Part shown: positions 5,476 to 26,062 of the stretch, one piece after another | Position numbering within the stretch: the stretch's first letter is position 1 | Layout: each line of letters begins with the position of its first letter | The notes under the pieces: model-generated | What the model was told of the DNA's origin: nothing | What the model saw: the letters and a program-made list of their open reading frames with translations, nothing else | The model's database searches: none | Position numbers and translations under genes: made by a program | DNA from: a virus | DNA length: 64,000 nt | Virus record (IMG/VR): IMGVR_UViG_3300037010_003037 | Location: 1-64,000 of that record | Reading direction: 5' to 3' (one strand)

Positions 5476-6030
5476 ATGACGAAATTCAACATCATTGCAG
5501 CGGTATCATTGAATGGAGTGATAGGTGATTCAGTCACTAATACCATACCATGGTATTTACCATCTGACCTTAAGCACTTCAAAAATGTTACGCAAAATGG
5601 CACGGTGGTAATGGGTTCTAGAACTTTTCGGAGCATCGGTAAAGTTCTTCCTAATCGGCGAAATGTAGTTATAACCAGAGCACAAGGTGATATAATAAAA
5701 GAGTTGTTGGAGATGGGGGTTAACCAAACATACACGAGCATAAGGGAAGCTATAAAGCATGAATACCCTAATTTTTTCGTGATAGGCGGTCAACATATTT
5801 ACCAAGAGGCTTTTAAAGCTAGACCTTCTAGACTTTATCTAACTATCGTAAAGATAGAAGCTCAAGGTGATGTTATTTTTCCAATAACCGGCAGTATGTT
5901 GTTGAACGATCAGTTTACAACATCTAATAATGTTTTGTACGTTTGTGAAAAACGATCTGAATGGTTTGATGATAATGGAATCCAATTTCAATTCACAGAA
6001 TTTGTGCCCCATGAATGTCGGGCTTACTAA
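5476..6030 (+). CDS. frd: Dihydrofolate reductase
   Basis: IIAAVSLNGVIG, IPWYLPSDLKHFK, VVMGSRTFRSI..LPNRRNVVITR, FVIGGQHIY. ATG 5476 preferred over TTG 5464. Confidence 0.93.
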   Translation: MTKFNIIAAVSLNGVIGDSVTNTIPWYLPSDLKHFKNVTQNGTVVMGSRTFRSIGKVLPNRRNVVITRAQGDIIKELLEMGVNQTYTSIREAIKHEYPNFFVIGGQHIYQEAFKARPSRLYLTIVKIEAQGDVIFPITGSMLLNDQFTTSNNVLYVCEKRSEWFDDNGIQFQFTEFVPHECRAY

Positions 6031-6265
6031 GCTTTCATCTAATAATTACAATTACGTTATCGTTCGTGATTGCGTACTTGAAACACCTGGGGTAACTATT
6101 ATCCTTACACAAGAATTTTCTAACAAGCAAAAGAAATTCTTTTTAGCAGGCGAATGGAGCAACGTTGACAGTCTGTTTAATCACATGAACTCTCTTACTG
6201 ATGATTTGTGTGGTCAATGGTTTAATGAACGACAACCAAAGAAAAAAGATAAAAAGAATGCATAG
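6011..6265 (+). CDS. Hypothetical protein
   Basis: ORF fills the gap; ATG 6011 chosen to minimise overlap with DHFR. Confidence 0.5.
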   Translation: MNVGLTKLSSNNYNYVIVRDCVLETPGVTIILTQEFSNKQKKFFLAGEWSNVDSLFNHMNSLTDDLCGQWFNERQPKKKDKKNA

Positions 6266-6374
6266 TGAAATTTCATAAAGAATGTTCTCTTAATGAGTAC
6301 TACACACTGCCAGATAATAAAACAAATTTGTTTTAGTTAAGAATTATTTTCATTTTATTAACCATAGGATTCTT

Positions 6375-6803
6375 ATGATGTTTGGACGTAAAGGACGTAA
6401 AAAGCTAACTATTGATTCATTTTCTAATCTTGTTGCTGAGGGCACTGAAATCTCTGGTACTGTTAAGTTTATTGGGGTAATCCTTGTCCGTGGCAAGGTT
6501 ACTGGTGATATCATTGCAGGTATCCAAGATTCAGACGCAAAAAAGCAATTAGATTGCATTAGTGTTGCCTCTACAGGTGAGGTAAGTTCGTCTGAAATGT
6601 TTGCAACAAATATCATTATTGAAGGACGGGTTACAGCAAAAAAGATTTGGGCAGAAGATACAATTAAAATTGCAAGCACTGCTATTATTACTGGTGGTGC
6701 GACAATTTATTGCCGTACTATTGAGGTTGAAACTGGAGCTGTATTGGATGATTGTCAAATTAAACATCTTGACAACTGCTCTAATGATGAAAAACCTGAG
6801 TAA
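6375..6803 (+). CDS. Bactofilin (polymer-forming cytoskeletal protein, DUF583/CcmA family)
   Basis: Beta-helical repeats LVAEGTEISGTVKF / ILVRGKVTGDI / IIIEGRVTAKKI / IEVETGAVLD; N-terminal MFGRK resembles the bactofilin membrane-targeting peptide. Confidence 0.85.
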   Translation: MMFGRKGRKKLTIDSFSNLVAEGTEISGTVKFIGVILVRGKVTGDIIAGIQDSDAKKQLDCISVASTGEVSSSEMFATNIIIEGRVTAKKIWAEDTIKIASTAIITGGATIYCRTIEVETGAVLDDCQIKHLDNCSNDEKPE

Positions 6804-6864
6804 TACAATCGCATATGCATAAATAATGCATAGACATACTATCACACATAGGAGAGCGCTCATA

Positions 6865-8823
6865 ATGAATCTCAGCACAAGTTTTAAAGAATCGTTTACC
6901 AAAAAGTTTGCTAGTGATGATGAGATGCCGCTTTTGCAGTATCTTGAACTTTGCAAAACTGATAAAATGGCATATGCCAACGCAGCTGAGAGGATGCTCG
7001 CTGCTATTGGTGAACCAACGGTCATTGACACATCAACTGATCCACGACTTTCACGAATCTTTTCTAACAAGAAAATTAGGCACTACAAAGCATTTAGTGA
7101 TTTCTATGGTGCAGAAGAAGCAGTTGAACGAATGGTTGCTTATTTCCGCCACTTTGCTCAAGGTTTGGAAGAATCAAAACAAATTCTTTATCTGAAGGGT
7201 CCAGTCGGTGGTGGTAAATCCTCGCTAGTTGAGCGCTTGAAGGTGCTCATGCAGCAAAACCCAATTTATGTTCTCAAGGATCCAAATGAAAAGAATCCTG
7301 AGCTTCAGATTTCCCCTCTTTTCGAATCCCCGCTTGGTCTATTCAATGCCCAAGAGCACGGTGAAATACTTGAAGCTGAATACGGAATTCCATCTCGCTA
7401 TCTTAACACTGTTATGAGTGGGTGGGCACAACAAAAACTACGTGAGTTTGGTGGTGATGTTACAAAGTTTTCAGTTGTTCGCATCTATCCTAACAAGGAC
7501 ACACAGGTTGGCATTATGAAGGTGGAACCTGGTGATGACAACAACCAGGACGTTTCAGTTTTGGTGGGTAAAACTGATATTCGTAAGCTTGAAGTTTACT
7601 CGCAAAACCATCCATATGCTTACTCATACAGCGGTGGTTTGAATCGCACAACTCAGGGGATGATGGACTTTGCCGAAATGTTTAAAGCAAACATTAAGAC
7701 ATTGAATCCACTGCTAACTGCAACACAAGAACACAATTACAATGGTACTGAAAACGTTCCATCGATGCCTTATAATGGTATTATTTGCGCTCACTCTAAT
7801 GAAGCAGAATGGTTTACGTTCCGTAATAACAAGACAAATGAAGCTTTCCTAGATCGTGTTTATATCGTTGATGTTCCGTATTGTCTGCGGGTCGATGAAG
7901 AACAAATGATCTATGAAAAGATGCTGAAGAGCTCAAGCTTGGCAGATGCACCTTGCGCCCCGCAAACTCTAAAATCTTTGTCCGAATTTATGGTTCTAAC
8001 TCGACTCAAAGAACCAGAGAACAGTACCATCTTTGCTAAGATGAAAGTTTACAACGGTGAAAACGTTAAGGACACTATGCCAATGGCTAAGCCTTACGAA
8101 GAATACCGAGAAGCTGCAGGCAAGGATGAGGGCATGACGGGCTTGTCTACCCGCTTTGGCTTCAAGATTTTGTCTCAAACGTTTAATTTGCGCCCAGAAG
8201 AAATTCAAGCCAACCCTATTGATCTGATGTACGTGCTTGAAACTTCTTTGAAGCGAGAGCACCTTCCACAGGAAACGCTAGACACGTACATGGACTTTAT
8301 TAAGTCATGGATTCAGCCGCGTTATTTTGAGTTTATTGATAAGGAGCTTCGCATCGCTTATCTTGAATCGTACAGTGATTTTGGTCAAACCATGTTTGAA
8401 CGATATGTTCTGTTTGCAGAAGCATGGATTGATGAAACTACAGTTCGTGATCCCGAGACACATACTCTGCTGAACAGGGATAACCTAAATGCGAAACTTG
8501 AGGAAATTGAGAAAGCAGCAATGATTGCTAATCCTAAGGATTTTAGAAATGACATTGTGCATTACGTGCTGCGCTACCGCGCTAAGAATGAAGGGAAGAT
8601 GCCAGCCTGGAATTCTTACGAGAAAATCAAAAACGTTATTGAAAAGAAGATGTTTGCTGCTACAAACGAGATTATGCCAATTGTTTCGTTCTCTCCAAAA
8701 GGGTCGAGCGAAGAACAGAAGAAGCATGATGAATTTGTTGCTCGCATGCGCACCAAGGGCTATACTGATCGTCAAATTAAGATCTTGGTTGATTGGTGGG
8801 TCAATAACCGGAAATCTAACTAA
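6865..8823 (+). CDS. prkA: PrkA/YeaG-family AAA+ ATPase (serine kinase-annotated)
   Basis: YANAAERMLAAIGEP, QILYLKGPVGGGKSSLVERLK, EPGDDNNQDVSVLVGK, LNPLLTATQE, NEAFLDR. ATG 6865 has a GGAG RBS; TAAATA at 6820-6825. Confidence 0.95.
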   Translation: MNLSTSFKESFTKKFASDDEMPLLQYLELCKTDKMAYANAAERMLAAIGEPTVIDTSTDPRLSRIFSNKKIRHYKAFSDFYGAEEAVERMVAYFRHFAQGLEESKQILYLKGPVGGGKSSLVERLKVLMQQNPIYVLKDPNEKNPELQISPLFESPLGLFNAQEHGEILEAEYGIPSRYLNTVMSGWAQQKLREFGGDVTKFSVVRIYPNKDTQVGIMKVEPGDDNNQDVSVLVGKTDIRKLEVYSQNHPYAYSYSGGLNRTTQGMMDFAEMFKANIKTLNPLLTATQEHNYNGTENVPSMPYNGIICAHSNEAEWFTFRNNKTNEAFLDRVYIVDVPYCLRVDEEQMIYEKMLKSSSLADAPCAPQTLKSLSEFMVLTRLKEPENSTIFAKMKVYNGENVKDTMPMAKPYEEYREAAGKDEGMTGLSTRFGFKILSQTFNLRPEEIQANPIDLMYVLETSLKREHLPQETLDTYMDFIKSWIQPRYFEFIDKELRIAYLESYSDFGQTMFERYVLFAEAWIDETTVRDPETHTLLNRDNLNAKLEEIEKAAMIANPKDFRNDIVHYVLRYRAKNEGKMPAWNSYEKIKNVIEKKMFAATNEIMPIVSFSPKGSSEEQKKHDEFVARMRTKGYTDRQIKILVDWWVNNRKSN

Positions 8824-8851
8824 TAAACTTAACTAAGATCTGAAGGACATC

Positions 8852-10156
8852 ATGCCATTTATTTTCATTGATAGAAGAAAGGCAGGTGGCGGTAAATCAA
8901 CTAATAATCGTCAGAAGCTTATTCGGCGTGTTAGGGGATTTATTAAAACATCTGTTCCACAAAACATTGGAGCTGGTGGTGTTAGTGGCACTAATGCAAA
9001 AAGCATGAGTCCAGTCAAAGTTACTGGCGAGGCGCTTGAAGAACCATTCTTCGCTTATGCAAATGACGGCAATGAAGTATCTGTCGTTATTGGTAATGAT
9101 CAGTATGATCGCGGTGATGAGATAGAATTTCCAGAAGAACAAGCAGCAGGTTCTGGCGCAGGGCCTGGAGAACAAGGTGAAGATGATTTTATTGTGAACG
9201 TGGCTCGTTCTGAATTCCTTGATGTCTTCTTTGAGGACTGTGAGCTTTATCTAACACACGAGCGCTTTACAGAAAAACTTGATAATAAGCACCAACCTGC
9301 TGGTTTTTCTACTACTGGTAACCCATCTCAGCTTAGTATTATTCGCACGTACAAGCAATCATTGGGCCGTCGTTGGGCTTTAATGAAGCCTTACAAGGAA
9401 GAACTTGAACAGCTTCGTGAGGAAATTAAGACAGTTGAGGAGAACAGTGAGCGTTGGAAAGAGATTGTTGCGCGTATTGAACAACTTCTTGGTAAGCTAT
9501 CATTTCTAGATTCATTTGATAAGTCTGATTTGCGCTATCGTAAGAAGGAAGCTAAACCCCTAAAGACTGTTGACGCTGTTCTTATCATGCTCATGGACAT
9601 TTCTGGATCTATGGGGAAAGAAGAAAAAAGCATAGCGCGGCGGTGGTTTGCTTTGCTTTATGAATTCATTAAACGTAAATATCCAACGGTTGAATTAAGA
9701 TTCATTGCTCACACTGATGAAGTGTTTGAGATGAATGAAGATGACTTCTTCAGTACTCGCATCAACGGTGGTACTCAAGTGTCTGTTGCCCTTAATCATA
9801 TTAGTAAAATGATTATTGAGCAATATGATCCAAATCAAACTAACATAATCGTCTGCCATGCGTCAGATGGTGACAACTGGTATGATGATAATGAAGCTGT
9901 AATTGACGCGATGATAGGGAAAGGAAACCTTATGAACAGGTGTAGCATGTTCAGTTATGTTGAAGTTGGAAATGAGAATTTTATAACGAACAGTGCTGGT
10001 GTACCAATAGTTATTCGCACTAACACTAATCTTTGGGAAACTTATGATGCTGTTCGCTTGAAACAACCGCCACATAAAGTCTCTTTAGCAAGAATTGGAA
10101 CACCAGATGATTGCTATCCTGTTTTCAAAAAAGTTTTTAGCAAAAAATCTAAATGA
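8852..10156 (+). CDS. yeaH: YeaH/YhbH-family vWA protein (DUF444)
   Basis: FIDRR..GKSTNNRQKLIRR, GNDQYDRGDEI, LMDISGSM, FIAHT, GGTQVS, HASDGDNW; follows prkA. Confidence 0.93.
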   Translation: MPFIFIDRRKAGGGKSTNNRQKLIRRVRGFIKTSVPQNIGAGGVSGTNAKSMSPVKVTGEALEEPFFAYANDGNEVSVVIGNDQYDRGDEIEFPEEQAAGSGAGPGEQGEDDFIVNVARSEFLDVFFEDCELYLTHERFTEKLDNKHQPAGFSTTGNPSQLSIIRTYKQSLGRRWALMKPYKEELEQLREEIKTVEENSERWKEIVARIEQLLGKLSFLDSFDKSDLRYRKKEAKPLKTVDAVLIMLMDISGSMGKEEKSIARRWFALLYEFIKRKYPTVELRFIAHTDEVFEMNEDDFFSTRINGGTQVSVALNHISKMIIEQYDPNQTNIIVCHASDGDNWYDDNEAVIDAMIGKGNLMNRCSMFSYVEVGNENFITNSAGVPIVIRTNTNLWETYDAVRLKQPPHKVSLARIGTPDDCYPVFKKVFSKKSK

Positions 10157-11649
10157 CAGAACCACTAATCACATCACGTACTGACTGGACTCCAGAGCTA
10201 CTACAAGAAATTTATAGTCATATTGAAGATGTGGCTTTAAATGATCTGAAGCTAGATGTTTATCCTAACCAAATTGAAGTAATCTCTGCAGAGCAGATGA
10301 TCGATGCATATGCATCAGTTGGTTTACCTGTAATGTACCCACATTGGTCGTTCGGAAAACAATTTTTGTCTAACTGGACAAAATACCAGAAGGGGCGAAT
10401 GGGTCTTGCATATGAGATTGTTATCAACAGTAATCCATGCATTAGCTACTTGATGGAAGAGAATAATGCTGTGATGCAGGCTCTTGTCATCGCCCACGCG
10501 GCGTTTGGGCATAATCACGTCTTTAAGAACAATTACATGTTTAAGGAGTGGACAGCAGCTGGTTCAATTATCGATTACTTGATCTTTGCAAAGACATTTA
10601 TTCGTGACTGTGAACTGCGCTATGGTCAAGATGAAGTTGAACTGCTTTTAGATGCCGCGCACGCGCTAGCACCTCATGGAGTTGATAAGAGAAAACGCAA
10701 GCACAAAAAGAAGCTGACAAAGGAAGAAGAAGCAGCAAAGCTTGTGTTAGATGCTGATGAAGAGCAGTTAAGTCTTGACATTATCATTAAGTCAACATCT
10801 AAGAAGATTGAAGAGAAAAAAGATGAACAGGACGATGATTTAGTCGGAGATGAAGAAAATTTGCTTTACTTTCTAATGAAGTTCTCTCCAACTCTTAAAG
10901 AATGGCAGCGAGAGGTTTTGAGAATCGTTTACAAGATTCATCAGTACTTTTATCCTCAAAGCCAAACTAAAGTCTTAAATGAAGGGTTCGCGACATTCAC
11001 GCACTTCTACATTATGGATGAGCTTGAAAAGCGGGGTTTGATTTCAGCTGACGCGCAGATCTCGTGGTTGCACTCACACTCGAATGTTATATACCAGCCA
11101 ACATATAAAAGTAAGCATTATGATGGTGGTTTTAATCCATACGCTTTAGGTTTTGCAATTCTGAAAGATATACGCCGTATCTGTGAAAATCCAACTGAAG
11201 AAGATAAAGAATGGTTTCCTAACCTAATTGGTATGGAATGGCGGGATGCTATTAAGGATGCAGTTGCTGAATACCGTGATGAAAGCTTTATTCAACAATT
11301 TCTTTCTCCTAAGGTTATTCGTGATTGGAATCTTTTCATTGTTGAACATCACAAAACATATGGTTATGTCAGTGAAATTAGTGATGATAAAGGTTATAGA
11401 AATATTCGAAATGCCCTATCAGCTAATTACGCCACTATCAATCGTATTCCTGATATTGTTGTAAAGTCAGCACGAATGAAAGGAGATAGAACTCTAACTC
11501 TTGAGTACCATCCATACAAAGGAAGATCATTACATGGTCCTTTTGCAAAGAAAACCATAGAGTTCGTTAAACTTCTATGGGGTTATGATGTAGAGATAGT
11601 ACAAACAAATAAAGATAGAATGGAAACAGTCATAGTAAAGGCAAAATAA
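10153..11649 (+). CDS. spoVR: SpoVR/YcgB-family protein
   Basis: YPNQIEVISAEQMIDAYASVGLP..YPHWSFGK, GLAYEIVINSNPC, AHAAFGHNHVFKNN, QTKVLNEGFAT, NPYALGF. Confidence 0.95.
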   Translation: MTEPLITSRTDWTPELLQEIYSHIEDVALNDLKLDVYPNQIEVISAEQMIDAYASVGLPVMYPHWSFGKQFLSNWTKYQKGRMGLAYEIVINSNPCISYLMEENNAVMQALVIAHAAFGHNHVFKNNYMFKEWTAAGSIIDYLIFAKTFIRDCELRYGQDEVELLLDAAHALAPHGVDKRKRKHKKKLTKEEEAAKLVLDADEEQLSLDIIIKSTSKKIEEKKDEQDDDLVGDEENLLYFLMKFSPTLKEWQREVLRIVYKIHQYFYPQSQTKVLNEGFATFTHFYIMDELEKRGLISADAQISWLHSHSNVIYQPTYKSKHYDGGFNPYALGFAILKDIRRICENPTEEDKEWFPNLIGMEWRDAIKDAVAEYRDESFIQQFLSPKVIRDWNLFIVEHHKTYGYVSEISDDKGYRNIRNALSANYATINRIPDIVVKSARMKGDRTLTLEYHPYKGRSLHGPFAKKTIEFVKLLWGYDVEIVQTNKDRMETVIVKAK

Positions 11650-11650
11650 A

Positions 11651-11672
11651 AAAGGGCTCCTAGGAGCCCTTT
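11651..11672. terminator. Bidirectional terminator between convergent genes
   Basis: Perfect palindrome aaagggctcctaggagcccttt. Confidence 0.8.
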
Positions 11673-11694
11673 AATTTTACTGATTTAACTCGGT

Positions 11695-12663
11695 TTAGAA
11701 CGCAGTAATTACTGAGCTTGTTGGCGCGCTAATAACGTACATGCTTGTAGCTCGTAATTGCTGAAGGTTGCTAACAGTACCAGAATTAACTATGTCACTA
11801 TAACTGTTTGTTTGCTCATCAATCAGTCGAACACGAAATTGAAGAGTTGATCCTTTGGCACCGTTAGCACCAGTAATTGACGTCGCCCGGGCGTCAACAT
11901 AAAAGTCGTTAGATGTATATGGTGAAACGCCAGTATTAGTGCCATCGCAAATGACTTGATATGTTGTTGTTAGCTGATAATAACCGATTGCTTGCGCAGC
12001 ACCATATGAGCCGCCAATTCTAACAGATGAGTTTGCTCTAAATGCAAGAGTAAAACCGTTTAGAACGGTATTCCAGCTTTGGTTTCGCGGGCTAGAAGTA
12101 TCTGGGTGCGCTAAGGTAATTCTAAACTCTCCACCAGTATTAAAAAAATACCTAGCATGATTCTCACTGGTAAACACTACTTGAAATTCTGCAGTAATTC
12201 CACTATTTCCACTGCCCCACGTTGAACTACGAGTAGTTGTTTGAATTGTACTAAGTGTCATGTTACCAAGCTGATAATTAAATCTGTTGGTATCAAGAGT
12301 CGCAAGCATATCTTGAATGTCATATGCATTCAATGATGGGGAACTACTTTTATGTGCAACAATGGTTGCACAAGAGTTTAAACTTGTTGATGGTGGAAGT
12401 AAAGACGTTGACGTATTTTGCCAGGTTGCCATGCTTGCTAAAATGGTCCTTAAATTTTGCCATTCACCATTTATAGTCGCTCCAGCTGAAATAGGTGATA
12501 AACTTGGAACGATTTGTCCATAACCTCTATCACCATATCCAACACCATATAAGTACCCGGCTTTATTAGCTGCATCAGCTGGCCCACTGGCAGCAACACC
12601 AGTTTGCCCGGCAAACGTATTAAAATCACTAACTTGAATTGCTGATCCTTTAATATATGACAC
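11695..12663 (-). CDS. Putative virion structural (tail-associated) protein
   Basis: Ser/Thr/Gly-rich; F.SENHARYFFNTGGEF motif shared with 59348..60814; downstream of a fibre gene. Confidence 0.6.
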   Translation of the reverse strand: MSYIKGSAIQVSDFNTFAGQTGVAASGPADAANKAGYLYGVGYGDRGYGQIVPSLSPISAGATINGEWQNLRTILASMATWQNTSTSLLPPSTSLNSCATIVAHKSSSPSLNAYDIQDMLATLDTNRFNYQLGNMTLSTIQTTTRSSTWGSGNSGITAEFQVVFTSENHARYFFNTGGEFRITLAHPDTSSPRNQSWNTVLNGFTLAFRANSSVRIGGSYGAAQAIGYYQLTTTYQVICDGTNTGVSPYTSNDFYVDARATSITGANGAKGSTLQFRVRLIDEQTNSYSDIVNSGTVSNLQQLRATSMYVISAPTSSVITAF

Positions 12664-16392: not shown

Positions 16393-16479
16393 CATCGTTT
16401 GACATCATTTTAGAATGATGCATGATTCAATGGTGGTTAAATAATATGTCATATCAAATTTTACATGAGGAATCCTCAA

Positions 16480-17268
16480 ATGCTTCCACAAATCCGAACT
16501 GCAGATATTCGTCAAGAATTCAAATCACTCCTATCTGCTGGTAAATTTACGTCTGTTAATCGTGAAGCAACAATGACGAGTTTAACAGGCGACACGACAA
16601 TAGAAATTGTTAGTGCCTCCTTCATCGCTGATGAAGAATCAATCTTTGGTGAAGTTAACTGGGATTACGTTAAGCGAGAAGAAGAGTGGTATAACTCTAT
16701 GTCCCTTAACATAAATGACATTCCCGGTGGCCCTCCACAAATTTGGAGAGCCGTTGCTGACAAAGATGGATACATTAACTCAAATTATGGTTGGTGTATC
16801 TATTCACCAGAAAATGGTTTTAATAAGTCTGTACGTGAAGTAACGAGTCAATATGTAAGAGTCCGCGCAGAACTCAAAACAAATCCAGAATCTCGTAGAG
16901 CTATCATGATCTATACTCGTCCATCCATGTGGGTAGATTACCATAAAAATGGGCGTTCAGATTTTATGTGTACTAATTCCGTGCAATACCTTATTCGTGA
17001 TGGCCAACTGCATGCAATAGTGCAGATGCGCAGCAATGACTCTATCTTTGGTTATCGTAATGATAGAGCATGGCAACAGCATGTTCTTGAAAAGCTTGCT
17101 GCTGAGTTAAACATCCCTGCTGGTAATTTGTATTGGAATGTTGGTTCACTTCACATATACGCGCGCCATTACTATCTGGTAGATCACTTTGCAAAAACAG
17201 GAGAATTAAACATTTCAAAAGCTGACTATAAAAAGCTTTATCCAGACTCTCCATACTTGCTAGTGTAA
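16480..17268 (+). CDS. 42: dCMP hydroxymethylase (T4 gp42 homologue)
   Basis: Nearly colinear with T4 gp42 as I recall it: TIEIVSASFIADE, INSNYGW, SRRAIMIYTRPSM, SDFMCTNSVQYLIRD, MRSND..FGYRND (Asp for cytosine specificity), WNVGSLHIY. Confidence 0.93.
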   Translation: MLPQIRTADIRQEFKSLLSAGKFTSVNREATMTSLTGDTTIEIVSASFIADEESIFGEVNWDYVKREEEWYNSMSLNINDIPGGPPQIWRAVADKDGYINSNYGWCIYSPENGFNKSVREVTSQYVRVRAELKTNPESRRAIMIYTRPSMWVDYHKNGRSDFMCTNSVQYLIRDGQLHAIVQMRSNDSIFGYRNDRAWQQHVLEKLAAELNIPAGNLYWNVGSLHIYARHYYLVDHFAKTGELNISKADYKKLYPDSPYLLV

Positions 17269-18183: not shown

Positions 18184-19923
18184 ATGAAATACAAACAACA
18201 AATTGATGCAGCATTTGAACGACTAGGCTTTAATCCAAGAGATGGGCAGAGAGAAGCAGTCAATCAGATACTAGAAGCTTTCATCGATGAAAAAGCAGAG
18301 AACGTAATTCTTAACGCACCTACTGGAACTGGCAAATCCATTATTGGCGCTGTTACAGCTGAAGCACTTACGTCAATTAAAGGTGGTTCCACTGAAGCAA
18401 TCAAGTCAGGCATTTCTCTTACCGCTACCAATGTGCTAGCAAAACAGTACGATAGTACCTTCAAAAGGATTGGTGAGCAGGGCAAGTACATCATGATCAA
18501 GGGGGCGAATAATTATGATTGTTCTGCTCTATCTCAGCCAGATAAATCTGAAAATGCTGAATCATGTGCTTGGTACACGATGGTGCAAAGTGGCAGTGAG
18601 TTTGACGATGTCATTCGCCAGCACTGTAATCATTGTGAGTATCTTGACATTAAGAAAAAGAAAAATTTTGTTCGACATGTTACCACTAACTACTCTTATT
18701 TTTTTATCGATAGGATGTATACTGGTAAATTTGAAGACCGTGACCTAATCGTGTGGGATGAAGCGCACCTTTTAAATGATCTTTTTAGCGAACACAATGC
18801 CATTTATTTCTCTCAGAAGAGAGTACAGCAAATGGCACAAGAAATTGCAGAAACAGTTCGCATTACTAATTTAGAAATTTCTAAGCTTCTTGTTTCAATA
18901 GCGGCAGATTGCGCGAAAAAAGACAAAATAAATGAGAAGAATTATGAGGCATATTTAAATGCCATGATGAAGATTTATCTTTATGCTAAAGAACAAGGAG
19001 CGGTTTTAGCTGAAAAAGCTCTTCGTGCCGGTCAATTACAGACATACAACAAACTTGCGCGCTTTACGAAGAAGTATGAAGGATTGGCATGTAAGATTGA
19101 TGATTTCTTTAAGTATGCTTATGATCACGTTTTTGAGTACAAGGAAGATGAAGCAGCGGTGAGCGTGAAGCCAGTGTTCGTTGGTACTATGATGAAAGCG
19201 TTGCAAGCTGCTGATCACAATCTTTTTATGTCAGCTACCTTAAGTGACACGTTTCTAACCACAACGTTGATGCTTGACAAGTCAAAAACAAAATTCATTA
19301 AGCTTGCTCCAACTTTTCCCAAAGAAAACAAGGAAGTTGTCTTTTTTGATCCTCTTTCACTTAGTTACACATCATTGCAGAACCCTAGTGTAGTTAAAAC
19401 GCTTCGCAATAATGTCTCAAAGATTGTTAGTAAGCACGTACAAGAGAGTGAGCGGGGTATTATTCTAGCACCAAGCTTCAAGCTTCAAAATGAAATTGTT
19501 GATGAACTAAAATCATCCAAGGATTTTTCAAAGTATAAACTGTTCGTTCAATATCAAGGGGAAAAGCTCGAGAATGTTCTGACTGCTTTTAAGGACTATA
19601 AAGGTGGGCCAGCAGTTCTTATTTCTCCTTCAATGTTTGAAGGTATTGATCTACCTGGAAATTTATCTCGCTTTCAAATCTTAGTAAAGGCTCCATTCCC
19701 ATCGCTAGGTGATAAGCGAATGAAGTTTATTTTGGATAAGTATCCTGAGCTGTACAACGTCATAACAATCATGAAAATGGTCCAAGGCGCAGGTCGATCA
19801 GTTAGATCAGCCGATGATTATGCGGTGACGTACATTCTTGATCAAAATGCGCAACGTTTGTTTACCTCTTCTCAAAATATCTGGAAGGACGAATTCAATC
19901 TGCGCTTCACGAAATTTCTTTAA
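18184..19923 (+). CDS. DinG/XPD/YoaA-family SF2 helicase
   Basis: Q-motif PRDGQ, APTGTGKS, Cys cluster, DEAH, MSATL, EGIDLPG, KAPFPSL, QGAGRSVRS. Confidence 0.9.
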   Translation: MKYKQQIDAAFERLGFNPRDGQREAVNQILEAFIDEKAENVILNAPTGTGKSIIGAVTAEALTSIKGGSTEAIKSGISLTATNVLAKQYDSTFKRIGEQGKYIMIKGANNYDCSALSQPDKSENAESCAWYTMVQSGSEFDDVIRQHCNHCEYLDIKKKKNFVRHVTTNYSYFFIDRMYTGKFEDRDLIVWDEAHLLNDLFSEHNAIYFSQKRVQQMAQEIAETVRITNLEISKLLVSIAADCAKKDKINEKNYEAYLNAMMKIYLYAKEQGAVLAEKALRAGQLQTYNKLARFTKKYEGLACKIDDFFKYAYDHVFEYKEDEAAVSVKPVFVGTMMKALQAADHNLFMSATLSDTFLTTTLMLDKSKTKFIKLAPTFPKENKEVVFFDPLSLSYTSLQNPSVVKTLRNNVSKIVSKHVQESERGIILAPSFKLQNEIVDELKSSKDFSKYKLFVQYQGEKLENVLTAFKDYKGGPAVLISPSMFEGIDLPGNLSRFQILVKAPFPSLGDKRMKFILDKYPELYNVITIMKMVQGAGRSVRSADDYAVTYILDQNAQRLFTSSQNIWKDEFNLRFTKFL

Positions 19924-20015: not shown

Positions 20016-20594
20016 ATGTCTAAAAATATATTCATTATAGAGGGGTTAGACAGATTAGGAAAATCCACTCTTATTCAGGGCATTCGAGATGAGCTTGGTT
20101 ATTATGAAGTAATTCACTTTAATAAACCACAACGCTTAGCCATCTATGATGGTAAAGCTACAACAGAAGGTGAAGTAAACAAGCTGCAAAGTTTTTATTA
20201 TTACCAATATACTAGCTTTGAAAACATGATGCTCTTAATGCGCAGTAATGCTAACATCATTTTTGACAGAGCCCATTTAGGTGAAGTTGTTTATTCACCA
20301 TTGTATCGTAACTATTCTGGTGACTATGTTTTTGAACTAGAAAAACAATATAGCATAGGTGATCTTGAAACTGTTAGGCTGATTCTTTTAGTAGAAGACT
20401 TTGACAAGGCAAAACATTTCGTTGATGATGGTAACAGTCTTGGACCTACTGAAAAGCGTTTTGAAGAACAAGAACGATTTATTTCTGCATTTCACAGATC
20501 ATTAATTAAAGACAAGAGAATTATCTGTGTAACTGACACAACTTTTGGTGGATTTAAAAATAAGAAAGACATTTTAAAGGAAGCACTTGTATGA
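20016..20594 (+). CDS. Thymidylate-kinase-like dNMP kinase
   Basis: IIEGLDRLGKST P-loop and IFDRAHLGE motif. Confidence 0.8.
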   Translation: MSKNIFIIEGLDRLGKSTLIQGIRDELGYYEVIHFNKPQRLAIYDGKATTEGEVNKLQSFYYYQYTSFENMMLLMRSNANIIFDRAHLGEVVYSPLYRNYSGDYVFELEKQYSIGDLETVRLILLVEDFDKAKHFVDDGNSLGPTEKRFEEQERFISAFHRSLIKDKRIICVTDTTFGGFKNKKDILKEALV

Positions 20595-21715
20595 AAGTAG
20601 CAGTAATTAAACTTGGTGCACGAATTTCATTTAACGCTAATGATACTTCTGGTGGTAATGGTGAGGCGCGTTCAATTATCAAAATGCTTCATAAGGGCGG
20701 GGCAGAAGTTAACATTTATACTAAAATTTTGAAAAAGGACAATCTTCTTCCAGAGTATAAATGGTTTGATCTTAGTGATCCTACTACTCTTAGTAATGGT
20801 GTTAATGCCGATGCGCTTATTGTTATAAATGGCAACGTAAACTTTTTTGGTGGGGCAGAAGATCGTGAACAGTTGTTAAACTACGTAATCATCAATGAAT
20901 TCAAGGGACCGGTATTCTACATTTTATGTGATCCAGAACTAACACTAACACAAGTTTGGCCATCTGTCTCAAAGAAAGAATGGGCATCTAACTGGTCGCA
21001 AGAACAATTGCATATTAGCCGATCTGACATCATTTATTTTTCCCAACCATATGATGTTGACAAAGTTCTTGAAGATATTAAGAAAAGGAATAATGAAGTT
21101 ATTCCTAATAAGATTGTTCATTTTCCATTTGAACAATTTCCATGCTTGAATGAACGTTTACCATTTAATCCTAACCCTGAAGTTGATTTGTCATATGGTG
21201 GTACGATGCGAGGTGGAAGACGCATGAAAAAAATGGTAAAGTTTTATTTTAATCATCCAGAAGATATCTCAGTTGAGATGTTCGGTAAAATTGATTTAGA
21301 TGATTTTAAGCCTAATTTAGTTTTTGGTAAGCGTCCACCTACATTTACAGGTCCTGTTCGGTATGATGAGATGCTTTCAAAGATGAATAGTGCGATGTCT
21401 CATTGCGTCATCGGAGATCCTTGGTATGAGGAAATTAATGACATGGCACAGCGCGCGTATGAATCAATTTGGTCCTCTGTGGTTACCTTCATTGATTCTG
21501 ACTTGGACAAATTGCGTAGGGTTTATAGTAGAGATAGAACACTATCAGATTTTTTGTATGTTTCAGATCGTGCAGAATTGTCCGAAAAAATACTGCTTTT
21601 GAAGCATGATACGGAACTTCGAAAGCTTATCATTCAAGATCAATTTAATGCAATTAACTTTGATGCAGAAAAGTATTGTACTAGCTTCGTTAATCAGATC
21701 GAGCAGATGAGTTAA
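20591..21715 (+). CDS. bgt: DNA beta-glucosyltransferase homologue (T4 BGT family, GT-B fold)
   Basis: LIVINGNVNFFGG, QVWPSV..KEW, DLSYGGTMRGGRR.KKMVKF, VEMFGK, PTFTGPV and VIGD..Y parallel T4 BGT as recalled. Confidence 0.88.
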   Translation: MKVAVIKLGARISFNANDTSGGNGEARSIIKMLHKGGAEVNIYTKILKKDNLLPEYKWFDLSDPTTLSNGVNADALIVINGNVNFFGGAEDREQLLNYVIINEFKGPVFYILCDPELTLTQVWPSVSKKEWASNWSQEQLHISRSDIIYFSQPYDVDKVLEDIKKRNNEVIPNKIVHFPFEQFPCLNERLPFNPNPEVDLSYGGTMRGGRRMKKMVKFYFNHPEDISVEMFGKIDLDDFKPNLVFGKRPPTFTGPVRYDEMLSKMNSAMSHCVIGDPWYEEINDMAQRAYESIWSSVVTFIDSDLDKLRRVYSRDRTLSDFLYVSDRAELSEKILLLKHDTELRKLIIQDQFNAINFDAEKYCTSFVNQIEQMS

Positions 21716-21762
21716 TCCCGTAAATATCACGGGCCCGTGATCGTGGTAATAAGGAGAAATGA

Positions 21763-23676
21763 ATGAATATTGTTATCTTAGCTGGTGGAACCGGCTCAAT
21801 TGCTCTTCAGACTGGATTGTACAACCTACTTGACGCTCATCTTGATGGTATTGATACCAAAATTTTGGTTAATGGATATGATAATGGTTTGAGTACTGGA
21901 GCAGTAAGGCAAGTAATGAATGGCCGCATTCTTGGCCCCTCTGACATTAGAAAGAACCAAACTACTCGTTTGGCGCTTGAGCATCCTGATTCACCATGGA
22001 TAAAGTTCCTTAATATTCGCTTTACGATTCCTTCATCAGATGTAAAAAACTTTTGCCTTATGAGAATTGCAGAGCTTGAAAATGCTTTGCAAAACAAGAA
22101 ACACGACACATTTCGGGCAGCTCAAAATGACAGCTTTGAACACGCGGATGATTCAGCTTTCAAAGCTAATATCTTGAGAGAAGCCATTGAAGAGTATTTT
22201 CGTTCACCAATTGCAACAAAGATTGATTACAATGACTTCTCATTAGCAAATATCATTTATGCCGGGTTAGCCAAGGTAAATGGGTATTCATTGCGTTCAG
22301 CAGCTAGAATCATGGCATCATTGATGGGCATTAAGGACAATGTCATTCTCAATGATGATACCTCATTGTTCCTAGGAGCCATCACGAAGAGTGGCAAGCG
22401 AATTACTGATGAAGGTGATATTGTTTCATGGGGCAATCATGATGATCCTTTTGTAGACATCTTCTTCACAGATGCTGAAGGTAATAATGCTGTTCCAGTT
22501 CTTTGTAATGAAGCTCGTGAAGCCCTATTAAATGCAGATCTTATCATTCTTTCGTCAGGTACCCAATGGTCTTCACTTATCCCAACATATGCTTCTGTTG
22601 GCTTTAAGGAAGTTATGTATGATGGTGTTAAGGGTGATGTTTTAATGGTCATGAATCGCAGACCAGATAAAGACTCTCCTGGGCAGGGGGCTTCCGAAAT
22701 TATTGATATTTTAGTACCTCGATATTTTAAGGAAGGTCAGCTCAATGTGATTCTTGATGAATCTGCCGATGATATTATGAAAATCATTGATGAAAAAGCA
22801 AAAGCAAAGATCACAAGCGCTGAATGGTTTAAGATGTCTGCTCCAGGTGAACAGCGAGATACTAAAACTCATGATTCACGGCGGCTAGCTATGGCAGTCG
22901 GTTATACGTATTTCAAGGACTTTGTCAACAGCGATTATTTTGTATTCGACTATGATGATACGCTTGTTGGTCGTGGTAACATCTACCCTCTCTCATCTAA
23001 GAGCAATGTCCAAGCAATCTGTGAGCTAAACACGACAAAGAAAATCGCAATCTGCACCGGTAACTCCATCAAAGCTATAAAAATTCATAATTCAAACTAT
23101 TATGGTTTAAGCACGTACAAAACATCTTTCACTCCTTTGGCTGTTTATGCTGATGGTGGAGTGAATAAGTATCTTTATGATACGCGTTTTCCAGATGGTA
23201 GTGATGATGGGATTTCCCACAAATTTATCGAATGTATCGACAAAAGTGTTTTGCTGGAAAAGGATGGTGCTTATGGAATTAATAGCATTATCAGCTCTCT
23301 GAAAGAACATCACATTCCTCTCTCAAAGATTGAGAATCGAGGTGATGTTATGATCACAATTAAACCAATTGATGAAGAATATCGACCAATGATAATTGAG
23401 CTAATCAAGTTACTCATTCAAGATACTGGTTTAGTTGTAAAGGCTTCTGGTCGAACAACAATTGAGATTCACCATCCTTCACTTTCAAAAGCGGCAGCTA
23501 TTCAGTACATAAAAAACACCGAGAAGCCATCAACTATCACTTATGTCGGTGATGAATTTTATGGTGGTAATGATGAATGTGTGAAATCTATTCCTGGTAT
23601 TCGTTGCTTGCACGTTACAAATCCGGCTAAAACAGCGTTCTTTATTCTTACTCTTACTGGTTATCGTCCTATCTAA
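21763..23676 (+). CDS. CofD/YvcK(GlmR)-like domain fused to a HAD IIB (phosphomannomutase-like) domain
   Basis: N-terminal: VILAGGTG, GYDNGLSTG, GPSDIRK, SLANIIY, ADLIILSSGTQWSSLIP. C-terminal: FDYDDTL, ICTGN, SGRTTIEI..SLSK, YVGDEFYGGND. Confidence 0.8.
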   Translation: MNIVILAGGTGSIALQTGLYNLLDAHLDGIDTKILVNGYDNGLSTGAVRQVMNGRILGPSDIRKNQTTRLALEHPDSPWIKFLNIRFTIPSSDVKNFCLMRIAELENALQNKKHDTFRAAQNDSFEHADDSAFKANILREAIEEYFRSPIATKIDYNDFSLANIIYAGLAKVNGYSLRSAARIMASLMGIKDNVILNDDTSLFLGAITKSGKRITDEGDIVSWGNHDDPFVDIFFTDAEGNNAVPVLCNEAREALLNADLIILSSGTQWSSLIPTYASVGFKEVMYDGVKGDVLMVMNRRPDKDSPGQGASEIIDILVPRYFKEGQLNVILDESADDIMKIIDEKAKAKITSAEWFKMSAPGEQRDTKTHDSRRLAMAVGYTYFKDFVNSDYFVFDYDDTLVGRGNIYPLSSKSNVQAICELNTTKKIAICTGNSIKAIKIHNSNYYGLSTYKTSFTPLAVYADGGVNKYLYDTRFPDGSDDGISHKFIECIDKSVLLEKDGAYGINSIISSLKEHHIPLSKIENRGDVMITIKPIDEEYRPMIIELIKLLIQDTGLVVKASGRTTIEIHHPSLSKAAAIQYIKNTEKPSTITYVGDEFYGGNDECVKSIPGIRCLHVTNPAKTAFFILTLTGYRPI

Positions 23677-24467
23677 TGAAAGCAGATTTATTCATTATTG
23701 CGGCAGGTGTCGGCTCACGCATGAACTCTAACATACCAAAGGCGCTAGTACCTATAGTTGATGAGCCATGCTTGACAACAACCCTTCAACAGATCGCGTA
23801 CAAGTTTAAAACTGTGCACGTGGTAACAAACATTCTCGTTCAAAACCAATGGACAGCATACTTTAAGAACCTAGCTGAGAAATATCCTGAGCTGACAAAA
23901 AATCTCATTAATGTTCCAATCAACTCAGGGCTTGGTGATGGTCATGCAACGATGATAGGCCTTCGATACGCTAGTGAGAATGGAACACTTGCTTCAGATG
24001 AGGTCACTGTCGCGTGGGGAGATGTGTTTTTCCCCAACGCTGAGATAATTGATGAACTTTTTTCTAATGAGCTTCAAGGATCTGGTCTTTTGCCTGCTGT
24101 TAAGGAGAACAATCCATATGTTTCTCTTTTGGTTGATGAAAAAATGCGATGCATTTCAGCTGATTTTTCAAAGTATGGCGAGAAACACCCGACTGGTTTT
24201 CATGATCAATCGGTTTTTAGGTTTAACAGCAGTCATCTTTATGACTCTCTTACGACAATACACGCTGCGTTTTGGAAGGGCGGTCGGTACATTACACCAG
24301 GTGGGGAGCTTTCACTTCTCTACACTTTCCATCATATGTACAACATCAACCGCGCTGCATATGTGTACGAAACAGATTATCCAACCTTAAGCTTCAACAC
24401 ATCAGAAGAAGTTGCAACAATTCAGCAGGAGATTTCTAAAAAATGGAAAGCACGCCACCAATCCTAA
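23676..24467 (+). CDS. NTP-transferase (GlmU/MobA/CofC-like nucleotidyltransferase)
   Basis: LFIIAAGVGSRM..NIPKALVPI, GLGDGHA, VAWGDV and C-terminal SFNT..E. Confidence 0.85.
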   Translation: MKADLFIIAAGVGSRMNSNIPKALVPIVDEPCLTTTLQQIAYKFKTVHVVTNILVQNQWTAYFKNLAEKYPELTKNLINVPINSGLGDGHATMIGLRYASENGTLASDEVTVAWGDVFFPNAEIIDELFSNELQGSGLLPAVKENNPYVSLLVDEKMRCISADFSKYGEKHPTGFHDQSVFRFNSSHLYDSLTTIHAAFWKGGRYITPGGELSLLYTFHHMYNINRAAYVYETDYPTLSFNTSEEVATIQQEISKKWKARHQS

Positions 24468-25129
24468 TCACATTAACATCTCCAACAGCTGCTGGAAAAT
24501 CATACCTGTTCAACTATATTCGTGATGTAGCGAAACTTCCCTGTTTGATCTCAACTACAACTCGTTTACCACGTGAAGGTGAGATTGATGGAGTTGATTA
24601 TTATTTCATTGATTTAGAAGAATCCAAGAGACTTGAAGAAGCAAATGAATTTGCTGAACTAGCCATTTATCGTGGAGTTCGCTACGGCGTTACAAAGAAA
24701 GAATGGAATAACAAGCTTCAGCCAGGAAAGATTGCGTTCTTAATTGTAGAACCAAGTGGTCTTGATCATTATGTAAAACCGGCTCTTGATATTGGTGCTA
24801 TTTGGTTGAAGTATTTCATTAATACGGATCTTCAAGTACGCATGGAACGATTTATTGATCGTATGGTTAAGGATGTTCGTAGCGCTATTAGTGTTGATAT
24901 TCTAAATGGAAAAATGTATTCGCACGTGAAAGAGCCTTCAGAAAAAACAATGAAAACAATCTTGTCATATTTTGATCGTCAACGAGCGATGCTTACTGAA
25001 GAAACACGGTGGGAAGCTAAAACTAACTGGACACGAATCATTTCTGGTGAAAATTCACCAGAAGAAAACTTAATGATCATTCAGAAAGATATTAAGGAAG
25101 CAGTTGAGCGACACATGAATCATGTGTGA
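24443..25129 (+). CDS. Guanylate-kinase-like NMP kinase
   Basis: SPTAAGKS P-loop, ISTTTRLPREGEIDGVDYYF, YRGVRYG. Confidence 0.85.
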   Translation: MESTPPILITLTSPTAAGKSYLFNYIRDVAKLPCLISTTTRLPREGEIDGVDYYFIDLEESKRLEEANEFAELAIYRGVRYGVTKKEWNNKLQPGKIAFLIVEPSGLDHYVKPALDIGAIWLKYFINTDLQVRMERFIDRMVKDVRSAISVDILNGKMYSHVKEPSEKTMKTILSYFDRQRAMLTEETRWEAKTNWTRIISGENSPEENLMIIQKDIKEAVERHMNHV

Positions 25130-25179
25130 TTTATGTCCTTTTAAATACTTTACAACGATATAACATGAGGTGAATTTTA

Positions 25180-25683
25180 ATGTATAATAACGCAAATCAA
25201 TCCCAAATTGGTACTAAGAAAGAATCTACGAATACATGTGATATGATTGGTGATATCTATGATATGCACACTAAATTTGGTGTGCGTGAAATTGTTAAAA
25301 CTTTTGATAAAGAAAAGCTTCAAAGCTTCTTGAAATTTCGCCTAGATTTTCTAAAAGAAGAATTGCTTGAAGCTTATGAAGCTGCTGGCTACAAAGTAGA
25401 TGTTAATATTGAAAAAGTAGCAGAACCTCAGCTAGATCGTGCAGAAGATGTTGTTGATGCAATGATTGATCTGTGCGTTGTTGCAATTGGAACATTGGAC
25501 GCGTTTCAAGTTGACACAGCTGAAGCATGGAATCGTGTCCACACAAAGAACATGGAGAAGGAACCTGGTATTAAACCATCGCGTCCTAATCCATTAGGTC
25601 TTCCAGATTTATGCAAACCGATTGGATGGACCGCACCTACCCATGCTGATAACGTGGGGCTTCTCGCAAAGGCATTTGAATAA
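25180..25683 (+). CDS. MazG-like/PRA-PH all-alpha NTP pyrophosphohydrolase
   Basis: RLDFLKEELLE...VVDAMIDLCVVAIG...VHTKNMEK...KPIGWTAP. Confidence 0.82.
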   Translation: MYNNANQSQIGTKKESTNTCDMIGDIYDMHTKFGVREIVKTFDKEKLQSFLKFRLDFLKEELLEAYEAAGYKVDVNIEKVAEPQLDRAEDVVDAMIDLCVVAIGTLDAFQVDTAEAWNRVHTKNMEKEPGIKPSRPNPLGLPDLCKPIGWTAPTHADNVGLLAKAFE

Positions 25684-26036: not shown

Positions 26037-26062
26037 AAAAGGAGAGCTTAAGCTCTCCTTTT
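26037..26062 (+). terminator. Intrinsic terminator
   Basis: Palindrome aaaaggagagcttaagctctcctttt. Confidence 0.8.

Follow-up and report, generated by a model that had tools for sequence, protein, structure and literature searches.

The first 64 kb (64,000 nt, hereafter the window) of the 147.7 kb viral IMG/VR record IMGVR_UViG_3300037010_003037 carry, at positions 20016–25683, a block of six genes that raises the question of why a phage with a homologue of the T4 β-glucosyltransferase (BGT) should also encode enzymes for making a sugar donor. Phage T4 uses host UDP-glucose and has no donor genes, whereas in this phage BGT is firmly linked with genes for a mutase fusion and a nucleotidyltransferase. 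The answer proposed is that glycosylation of 5-hydroxymethylcytosine (hmC) is self-supplied in this jumbo phage: probably, a hexose 6-phosphate is converted to the hexose 1-phosphate and then to a nucleoside diphosphate (NDP)-hexose, from which BGT passes the sugar to hmC. The record has a CheckV completeness of 42%, and the full phage genome is probably ∼350 kb.

All six genes lie on the + strand, in the order Tmk-like kinase, BGT, fusion, NTPt, guanylate kinase and MazG-like pyrophosphohydrolase. The fusion (637 aa; 21763–23676) joins a CofD-superfamily N-domain to a HAD-IIB C-domain, and NTPt (23676–24467) is assigned by fold and profile as a sugar-1-phosphate nucleotidylyltransferase (NTP_transf_3). 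Along the block, successive genes overlap by 4 nt, stand 47 nt apart, overlap by 1 nt and then by 25 nt, and stand 50 nt apart, which agrees with the tightly coupled run claimed in a preliminary description of this DNA; each of the six open reading frames (ORFs) also has the domain stated there.

An alignment-based scan of IMG/VR yielded 36 loci with 27 distinct fusions, whilst IMG/VR contigs queried with a single fusion protein gave no matches. In 23 of these 27 distinct viral loci, BGT lies upstream of the fusion, either directly or separated from it by one or two ORFs. The order Tmk–BGT–fusion–NTPt(–guanylate kinase–MazG) is repeated in 14 related IMG/VR contigs at 45–75% amino-acid identity, and the colinearity of BGT, fusion and NTPt persists down to 27% fusion identity. 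NTPt adjoins the fusion wherever the contig continues, save in locus L038, where none was detected; BGT is missing from L026 (cut by the contig end), L027 and L030, and in the rearranged L028 it is found ∼6 kb from the fusion. The guanylate kinase and MazG genes follow NTPt only in the near clade. The gene arrangement is not chance, and its core consists of BGT, fusion and NTPt.

Homologues of the fusion are numerous in metagenomes (>550, many on contigs >300 kb), and among isolates only the Ralstonia jumbo phage RsoM2USA has one, to which one uncultured 462 kb phage can be added. In RsoM2USA, BGT (gene 2), the fusion (gene 1) and NTPt (gene 486) are colinear across the record ends, with a dCMP-type thymidylate synthase (TS) homologue close by; of this cassette, only ORF2 was annotated in the RsoM2USA paper, as a beta-glucosyltransferase. 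Close nucleotide relatives of the 5.7 kb block were not found by megablast among 50,697 phage records, and PHROGs holds a family for neither the fusion nor NTPt. A literature search returned nothing tying YvcK/CofD or a phosphomannomutase (PMM)-type mutase to phage DNA modification, nor CofD to jumbo phages.

Two phage loci depart from this arrangement. In L027, a TET-associated glycosyltransferase (TAGT; PF20691; phrog_842 at 7e-50, a family labelled beta-glucosyl-HMC-alpha-glucosyltransferase) takes the place of BGT at L027:7247–8218, 1.8 kb upstream of the fusion. In L030 (IMGVR_UViG_3300032007_000006; 352 kb, 99% complete), NTPt (9306–10010) lies upstream of the fusion (9998–11773), as it does in Lachnospiraceae; no TS homologue was found in the whole genome and no BGT near the pair. 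A C5 cytosine DNA methylase (5768–6979) is encoded in L030 ∼2.3 kb upstream of the pair, together with several ORFs that belong to no family, and a methylase-based route may lead to the acceptor base in this phage. Protein P0067 (895 aa; L004:2494–5181, on a 6.6 kb contig) combines YvcK, PMM-type HAD and NTP_transf_3 domains in one chain; its gene is bordered by pieces of IS66 transposase genes, a piece of an aldose epimerase gene and an EryCIII-like glycosyltransferase gene read in the divergent direction.

Inserted genes occur between BGT and the fusion. A class I S-adenosylmethionine (SAM)-dependent methyltransferase (Methyltransf_23/31/12), a gene that the window does not have, is located there in three more distant phage lineages (L019:8970–9992; L021:9192–10004, equivalent to L023:4786–5598; and L029:8781–9587), and may tailor the sugar by methylation. 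In near relatives, the position is held by ORFs of 205–267 aa with no Pfam match above threshold (L005:8876–9556, L006:8703–9446, L008:885–1664, L016:8931–9734 and L018:9322–9939), which may be mobile endonucleases or extra pathway genes; the L016 insert has only a faint PvuRts1I-like match.

The C-domain of the fusion covers residues 382–637 (22906–23676, +). Searched alone, its profile matched P. falciparum PfHAD5/PMM (3.9e-18), human PMM2 (5e-15), PMM1 (1.5e-13) and the L. lactis PMM-like α-phosphoglucomutase (α-PGM; 6e-11), the first non-mutase match following at 3e-3, and PMM/α-PGM structures also head its Foldseek matches. Residues D396, D398, T400, R526, K576, G596, E598, G602, N603 and D604 are invariant, with D597 and R541 nearly so. 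The motifs present are a DxDxT nucleophile with its Asp+2, the motif III Lys, a PMM-style motif IV (GDExxxGGND) and two cap Arg residues (R526 and R541) of the kind expected to bind the distal phosphate, and these align with IELRNG...SPIGR...EER and GDRTDKGGND of PfHAD5. The C-half of the fusion is assigned on these grounds to the eukaryote-type phosphomannomutase/α-PGM type, as opposed to a generic HAD, with its mutase activity and sugar preference being predictions.

The structural model of NTPt (pLDDT 94) matches the uridylyltransferase domain of GlmU (3spt) with a Z score of 27.9 and a root-mean-square deviation of 2.2 Å, followed by GalU-type UDP-glucose pyrophosphorylases (Z 24) and RmlA (Z 23), with IspD and TarI among the other matches. 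Because 247 of 263 residues superpose on GlmU, NTPt is modelled as a complete sugar-1-phosphate nucleotidylyltransferase of the GlmU/GalU/RmlA type, sugar lobe included, and it is not visibly CofC-like; CofC/FbiD do not appear among the sequence or fold matches listed, and any kinship with them would be distant. Residues K22 and D116, each invariant in a set of 26 homologues, are the counterparts in the alignment of GlmU (chain 2v0h) residues K25 and D105, which have been named for nucleoside triphosphate (NTP) binding and catalysis in GlmU (PMC10128056). The uracil-reading Q76 of GlmU corresponds to a nearly invariant Ile82 in NTPt, and it is for this reason that UTP specificity should not be assumed.

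The N-domain of the fusion covers residues 1–381 (21763–22905, +). Its profile matches YvcK structures at 7e-37 to 2e-27 (130.7 bits to 2ppv), compared with 4e-3 for CofD 3c3d, over the first 36 residues only, and 2.7 for FbiA. Foldseek TMt values are 0.79–0.83 to YvcK vs 0.66 to CofD, and within NCBIfam the domain matches the YvcK model TIGR01826, with no CofD model among the matches listed. The N-domain is thus placed by sequence in the YvcK/GlmR branch, not in CofD proper. Residues G8, G9, G11, N37, D40, D61, R63, K64, G266, T267, N298 and D302 are invariant. In FbiA/CofD, the metal is held by two Asp residues (FbiA D45 and D57; PMC7253369), and D40 and D61 are invariant in the N-terminal motifs that correspond to those of FbiA, a correspondence of motif position rather than of residue-level alignment. 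A catalytic set of D40, D41 and N198 has been proposed for GlmR, and the activities reported for YvcK are UDP-sugar binding and uridylyl transfer (PMC10128056). Mapped through the B. halodurans and S. epidermidis chains, rather than through L. monocytogenes GlmR, D40 of this set is invariant in the N-domain and the residue after it is N or D (S. epidermidis YvcK likewise has DN), whilst the Asn found in the PNL motif of YvcK is matched by T275, a position that is Thr or Ser in all homologues. Most likely, the YvcK domain binds an NDP-sugar, either for feedback control or for handing it on.

The BGT homologue (family GT63; 20591–21715, +) exceeds the PF09198 cut-off of 27 bits by a wide margin (74.1 bits), matches phrog_7922 at 7e-53 and scores 124.8 bits against the T4 BGT structure 1bgt. 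Across 21 homologues, T4 residues D100, R191, R195, Y261 and R269 align with invariant positions and E272 with a nearly invariant one; the window BGT has D114, R207, R211, R288 and E291 as counterparts of D100, R191, R195, R269 and E272, respectively. In T4 BGT, D100 is the catalytic residue, and R191, R195, R269 and E272 are diphosphate or ribose ligands. The protein is predicted to be a DNA hmC glycosyltransferase, as are its use of a nucleotide-sugar donor and of hmC in duplex DNA as acceptor. Neither an α-glucosyltransferase (PF11440, which gave no match in control genomes either) nor an NAD-epimerase (PF01370) was found in the 147.7 kb record, 42% complete as it is. A predicted complex of the YvcK domain with BGT scored 0.00, which counts neither way.

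Around 3 kb upstream of the block, a gp42-type dCMP hydroxymethylase, itself a TS homologue, is encoded at 16465–17268 (+), and the gp42 gene claimed in the preliminary description is a true homologue, matching the T4 gp42 structure 1b49 over residues 38–258 with 270.7 bits (E 1.2e-79). Its catalytic Cys is present, as is Asp at ThyA position L143 (SDFMCT); the Asp of ThyA D169 is retained (RSND), and N177 of ThyA is replaced by Asp (YRND). According to the diagnostic residues of Lee et al. (2026), Asp at N177 marks dCMP-specific enzymes, and 5-hydroxy-dCMP synthases carry Asn at D169 (PMC13326640). Because Asp, not Asn, stands at D169, the enzyme is read as a hydroxymethylase and the base in this phage as hmC; a 5-hydroxycytosine pathway is ruled out by the same residue. 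Elsewhere, in two related phage contigs, TS-family matches at G004:C1:120522–121115 (L125) and G005:C1:30611–31117 (L126) each contain one in-frame stop, TAG and TAA, respectively, for which a split gene, an intron, recoding or an error might account.

Three further genes of the block belong to nucleotide metabolism. The Tmk-like deoxynucleoside monophosphate (dNMP) kinase (20016–20594, +; PF02223 at 26.5 bits, just below the cut-off; phrog_761 at 9e-10), for which no PDB relative was found by sequence, is a probable hm-dCMP/dTMP kinase and lies directly upstream of BGT in near relatives and several distant ones. The MazG-like (PRA-PH) NTP pyrophosphohydrolase (25180–25683, +; PF01503 at 29 bits; phrog_671 at 2e-16) is probably a dCTPase that would prevent cytosine from entering the DNA; in line with this role, its nearest isolate relatives are hydrolases adjoining a dNMP kinase in Pootjesviridae, in which cytosine is fully replaced (PMC13326640). 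The guanylate kinase (24443–25129, +; PF00625 at 55 bits) has an intact P-loop and GMP-binding motif (S-TTR-PR-GE-DG-DY). It occurs only in the near clade and in L028, where it sits just upstream of the fusion, and the genomes of RsoM2USA, G001 and G003, all complete, lack it. It is therefore accessory and outside the conserved core, and a part in that core as a dedicated GMP recycler was rejected on the same absence.

Outside phages, a survey in which one genome per species was scanned for a full-length fusion adjoining an NTPt homologue found the pair in ∼35 bacterial contigs, mostly of Clostridia, with no BGT, TS homologue or Tmk near it in any of these. Three bacterial contexts were examined. 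In a Lachnospiraceae metagenome-assembled genome (MAG; L056:5214–13810), the pair is part of a cluster for surface polysaccharide that encodes an initiating sugar transferase, GT8, LicD and WavE; further members are a PFL-like glycyl-radical enzyme, a radical-SAM activase and a 661-aa HAD protein, an unusual mix for a glycan cluster. In L065 and L072, a membrane GT2 gene is directly upstream of the pair, amongst housekeeping genes. In a Steroidobacteraceae MAG (L041; JBJMWM010000041.1; fusion at 7980–9875), the fusion is 53% identical to that of the window, and the cluster around it (57% GC) has three sulfotransferase genes, MatE, an EryCIII-like GT1 and a capsule/pyruvyl-transferase protein. 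Next to an NTP_transf_3 gene, members of the YvcK-like subfamily are also fused to GT2, with the two domains in either order, in SAR86 (L078:7044–9236) and Fluviispira multicolorata (L104:7977–10004), and Lachnotalea has one with a HAD_2 gene as its neighbour. A quick tree does not separate the phage fusions from the bacterial ones, the label changing four times or more: L041 falls inside the jumbo-phage clade, which suggests a recent phage–bacterium exchange, and phage L030 falls among the Lachnospiraceae rows. A glycosyltransferase partner is always beside the pair, whether BGT or TAGT in phages or GT2, GT8 or EryCIII-like GT1 in bacteria. Occurrence of the fusion and NTPt independently of gp42 and bgt, which had been set beforehand as a sign against a joint role, is thus seen in these bacterial contigs and in one 99%-complete phage, L030, whereas in phages the pair stays with DNA-modification genes even where the glycosyltransferase family or the route to the base changes.

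From the families, folds, conserved catalytic residues and synteny observed, we infer a pathway of two arms, in which the enzymatic steps, their order, the choice of hexose and nucleotide, and the part played by the YvcK domain are all predictions. In the first arm, the gp42-type enzyme would make hm-dCMP, which the Tmk-like kinase and host nucleoside diphosphate kinase would raise to the triphosphate; with dCTP cleared by the MazG-like NTPase and dGMP handled by the guanylate kinase, DNA would be built with hmC instead of C. In the second arm, the PMM-type HAD domain would turn hexose 6-phosphate into hexose 1-phosphate, the GlmU-like NTPt would join this with an NTP to give the NDP-hexose, and BGT would flip out hmC and put the hexose on its hydroxymethyl group, with the YvcK-type domain binding the NDP-sugar for feedback or hand-on. 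This donor-supply model is preferred because the pair is constantly accompanied by a glycosyltransferase, of whatever family, and because the two assignable domains amount to the two textbook steps from hexose 6-phosphate to NDP-hexose. The catalytic residues kept in BGT and NTPt, the colinear trio in 23 of 27 loci and in RsoM2USA, and the single chain of P0067 also speak for it. In polysaccharide clusters, manB/manC pairs serve as donor-supply cassettes of this kind. Phage-encoded precedents are the UDP-arabinose genes in RB69/DLP3 and the NDP-sugar mutase in Pootjesviridae (PMC13326640). Of two models put forward in the preliminary description, the first, in which a phosphomutase and a nucleotidyltransferase feed BGT, is favoured by the PMM profile and the GlmU-type fold, whereas its non-glucose sugar, and with it a new modification, would be a further assumption. 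As PMM-type enzymes include α-PGM, NDP-glucose is a possible product; the sugar could be plain glucose and the DNA plain β-glucosyl-hmC, and any chemistry beyond glucosyl-hmC is conjectural.

Several observations weigh against self-supplied glycosylation. The mutase and pyrophosphorylase cover two of the three conserved domains, leaving the YvcK domain, equally conserved and with D40 and D61 intact, without a necessary role. The YvcK-like subfamily recurs with NTP_transf_3 even where there is no PMM domain, as in the GT2 fusions of SAR86 and Fluviispira, and this looks more like an enzyme pair in the style of CofC/CofD than like a regulator. T4 manages on host UDP-glucose, so that it is unproven what selects for a supply cassette, and with Ile at the uracil-reading position the nucleotide is not fixed by sequence.

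The conservation and recurrence of the YvcK domain fit a phosphodiester relay, a generalised form of the second model of the preliminary description, in which the YvcK/CofD-superfamily domain would move hexose 1-phosphate from the NDP-hexose onto a primary hydroxyl, that of the glucose installed by BGT or that of hmC, with release of a nucleoside monophosphate. The CofD superfamily performs chemistry of this type at a two-Asp metal site (PMC7253369), and D40 and D61 of the fusion are invariant in the corresponding motifs. The domain is conserved as strongly as the catalytic domains; its subfamily adjoins NTP_transf_3, being fused to GT2 in bacteria and to NTPt in P0067. In the near clade the module has a guanylate kinase gene next to it, and in L028 this gene immediately precedes the fusion. 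Phage SP-15 is a known case of DNA bearing phospho-sugar adducts. Against this, the N-domain falls in the YvcK branch (7e-37 to 2e-27) and not with CofD (4e-3), and NTPt is GlmU-like, with CofC/FbiD absent from the matches listed. The guanylate kinase is missing from the complete RsoM2USA, G001 and G003 genomes, and the acceptors would have to span everything from a DNA-bound sugar to bacterial polysaccharides. CofD-type transfer has also been shown for no YvcK, the reports being of UDP-sugar binding and uridylyl transfer (PMC10128056). The second model is weakened by the YvcK-type N-domain, the lack of a CofC-like signal in NTPt and the missing guanylate kinase, and the relay is regarded as unlikely. 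Its product, which we would judge equally doubtful, would be a phospho-disaccharide hypermodification of cytosine, of a kind undescribed for hmC phages, and the SAM methyltransferase in three lineages would hint at more tailoring.

It is more improbable still that the pair serves a glycan that is not attached to DNA, for example by helping to glycosylate virion proteins or to remodel the envelope of the host, with its proximity to BGT reflecting a clustering of sugar-related or early genes. The pair is indeed common in bacterial surface-polysaccharide clusters that have no DNA-modification genes, phage and bacterial copies interleave in the tree, and L030 has the pair with neither BGT nor a TS homologue. 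However, a DNA glycosyltransferase flanks the pair in 24 of 27 phage loci (BGT in 23 and TAGT in L027), with the BGT of L028 ∼6 kb away, and this flanking survives rearrangements and a fall to 27% identity. Even L030 has its C5 DNA methylase ∼2.3 kb upstream of the pair, and in the window the pair is translationally coupled within a nucleotide-metabolism block.

A takeover of host metabolism, in which the YvcK-type domain acts as a GlmR-like UDP-sugar sensor that regulates the hexosamine or UDP-sugar flux of the host and the cassette redirects host carbon without feeding BGT directly, is very improbable. The N-domain does fall in the YvcK/GlmR branch, and GlmR of B. subtilis is reported to bind UDP-sugars and to regulate GlmS. 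However, the yvcJ/whiA context is absent around the fusion, and the proposed GlmR catalytic-set Asn aligns with Thr/Ser. The domain is also joined covalently to a mutase, and its gene is coupled to those of a nucleotidyltransferase and a glycosyltransferase, across phages and bacteria with very different hosts.

Self-supplied hmC glycosylation, as the preferred reading, can be set beside known systems. The T4 pathway (gp42, the gp1 dNMP kinase, the gp56 dCTPase and BGT) is alike in having gp42 and BGT homologues with the key residues, a kinase and an NTP pyrophosphatase, whereas the kinase here is Tmk-like and not gp1-like by sequence, and the 147.7 kb record has no α-glucosyltransferase match. 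The clusters for arabinosyl-5-hydroxycytosine in RB69/DLP3 and hexosyl-5-hydroxycytosine in Pootjesviridae likewise contain a TS homologue, a dNMP kinase, DNA glycosyltransferases and NDP-sugar supply genes (a HAD and a nucleotidyltransferase), but they differ in their 5-hydroxycytosine base, heptose-bisphosphate-type HAD phosphatase, kinase-fused nucleotidyltransferase and non-BGT glycosyltransferases (PMC13326640). The block described here instead has an hmC base, a PMM-type HAD and a YvcK domain.

With the CofC/CofD (FbiD/FbiA) relay of F420 synthesis, the block shares a nucleotidyltransferase gene beside a CofD-superfamily gene and, by motif position, Asp residues that may correspond to those at the metal site of FbiA; it differs in that the N-domain is far nearer to YvcK, the partner is GlmU-like with a sugar-binding lobe, and a PMM domain and a glycosyltransferase are added. 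Bacterial YvcK/GlmR (UPF0052) is the best sequence and fold match of the N-domain and has the GGxG, DNG-STG and GD-RK motifs in common with it, but the N-domain has an extra helical insert of ∼50 residues, Thr/Ser for the PNL Asn, and a fused mutase. Instead of lying in a yvcJ–glmR–whiA operon, its gene is found with those of BGT and NTPt in phages, and with those of a glycosyltransferase and NTPt in bacteria. The manB/manC pairs and the L. lactis HAD-type α-PGM (4bnd) resemble the cassette in the inferred logic from hexose 6-phosphate to NDP-hexose and in placement near glycosyltransferases; classical ManB, however, belongs to the α-D-phosphohexomutase superfamily, not to HAD, and here the nucleotidyltransferase is of a distinct GlmU-like family and the mutase carries YvcK. 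Whilst hmC glycosylation itself is known, what would be new is a phage donor supply for it with enzymes undescribed for such a purpose.

Around the block, a helicase is encoded upstream at 18184–19923 (+). Downstream, a hairpin at 26037–26062 (+; 11-bp stem with 5 G-C pairs) is the sole strong terminator-like site on the + strand beyond position 20016 and would, as a terminator-like element, close the block; a scan of the sequence for sigma-70 promoters gave background levels. Just past the block, a 497-aa ORF at 26118–27611 matches phrog_1250 (unknown function; 1e-34), with a weak AAA_16 ATPase match, and is kept downstream of the cassette in near relatives.

It depends on the sugars carried by hmC whether restriction enzymes, type IV nucleases, CRISPR nucleases and antiviral glycosylases cut the DNA of a phage. 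Loss of host galU or pgm leaves T4 unglucosylated and open to restriction, and a phage making its own donor, if the proposed pathway is true, would be freed from host UDP-glucose and may use a sugar that is not available from its host. Although widespread, the cassette is uncharacterised, and the cultured RsoM2USA makes its chemistry directly testable. It also sets the biochemically disputed YvcK/GlmR family in a three-enzyme module shared by phages and bacterial glycan clusters, something that makes its function tractable, and were the relay to be true, the YvcK family would gain a defined enzymatic function. New pairs of DNA glycosyltransferase and donor would be useful for 5hmC labelling, and the cassette may reveal either a new sugar on hmC or a function for the YvcK family.

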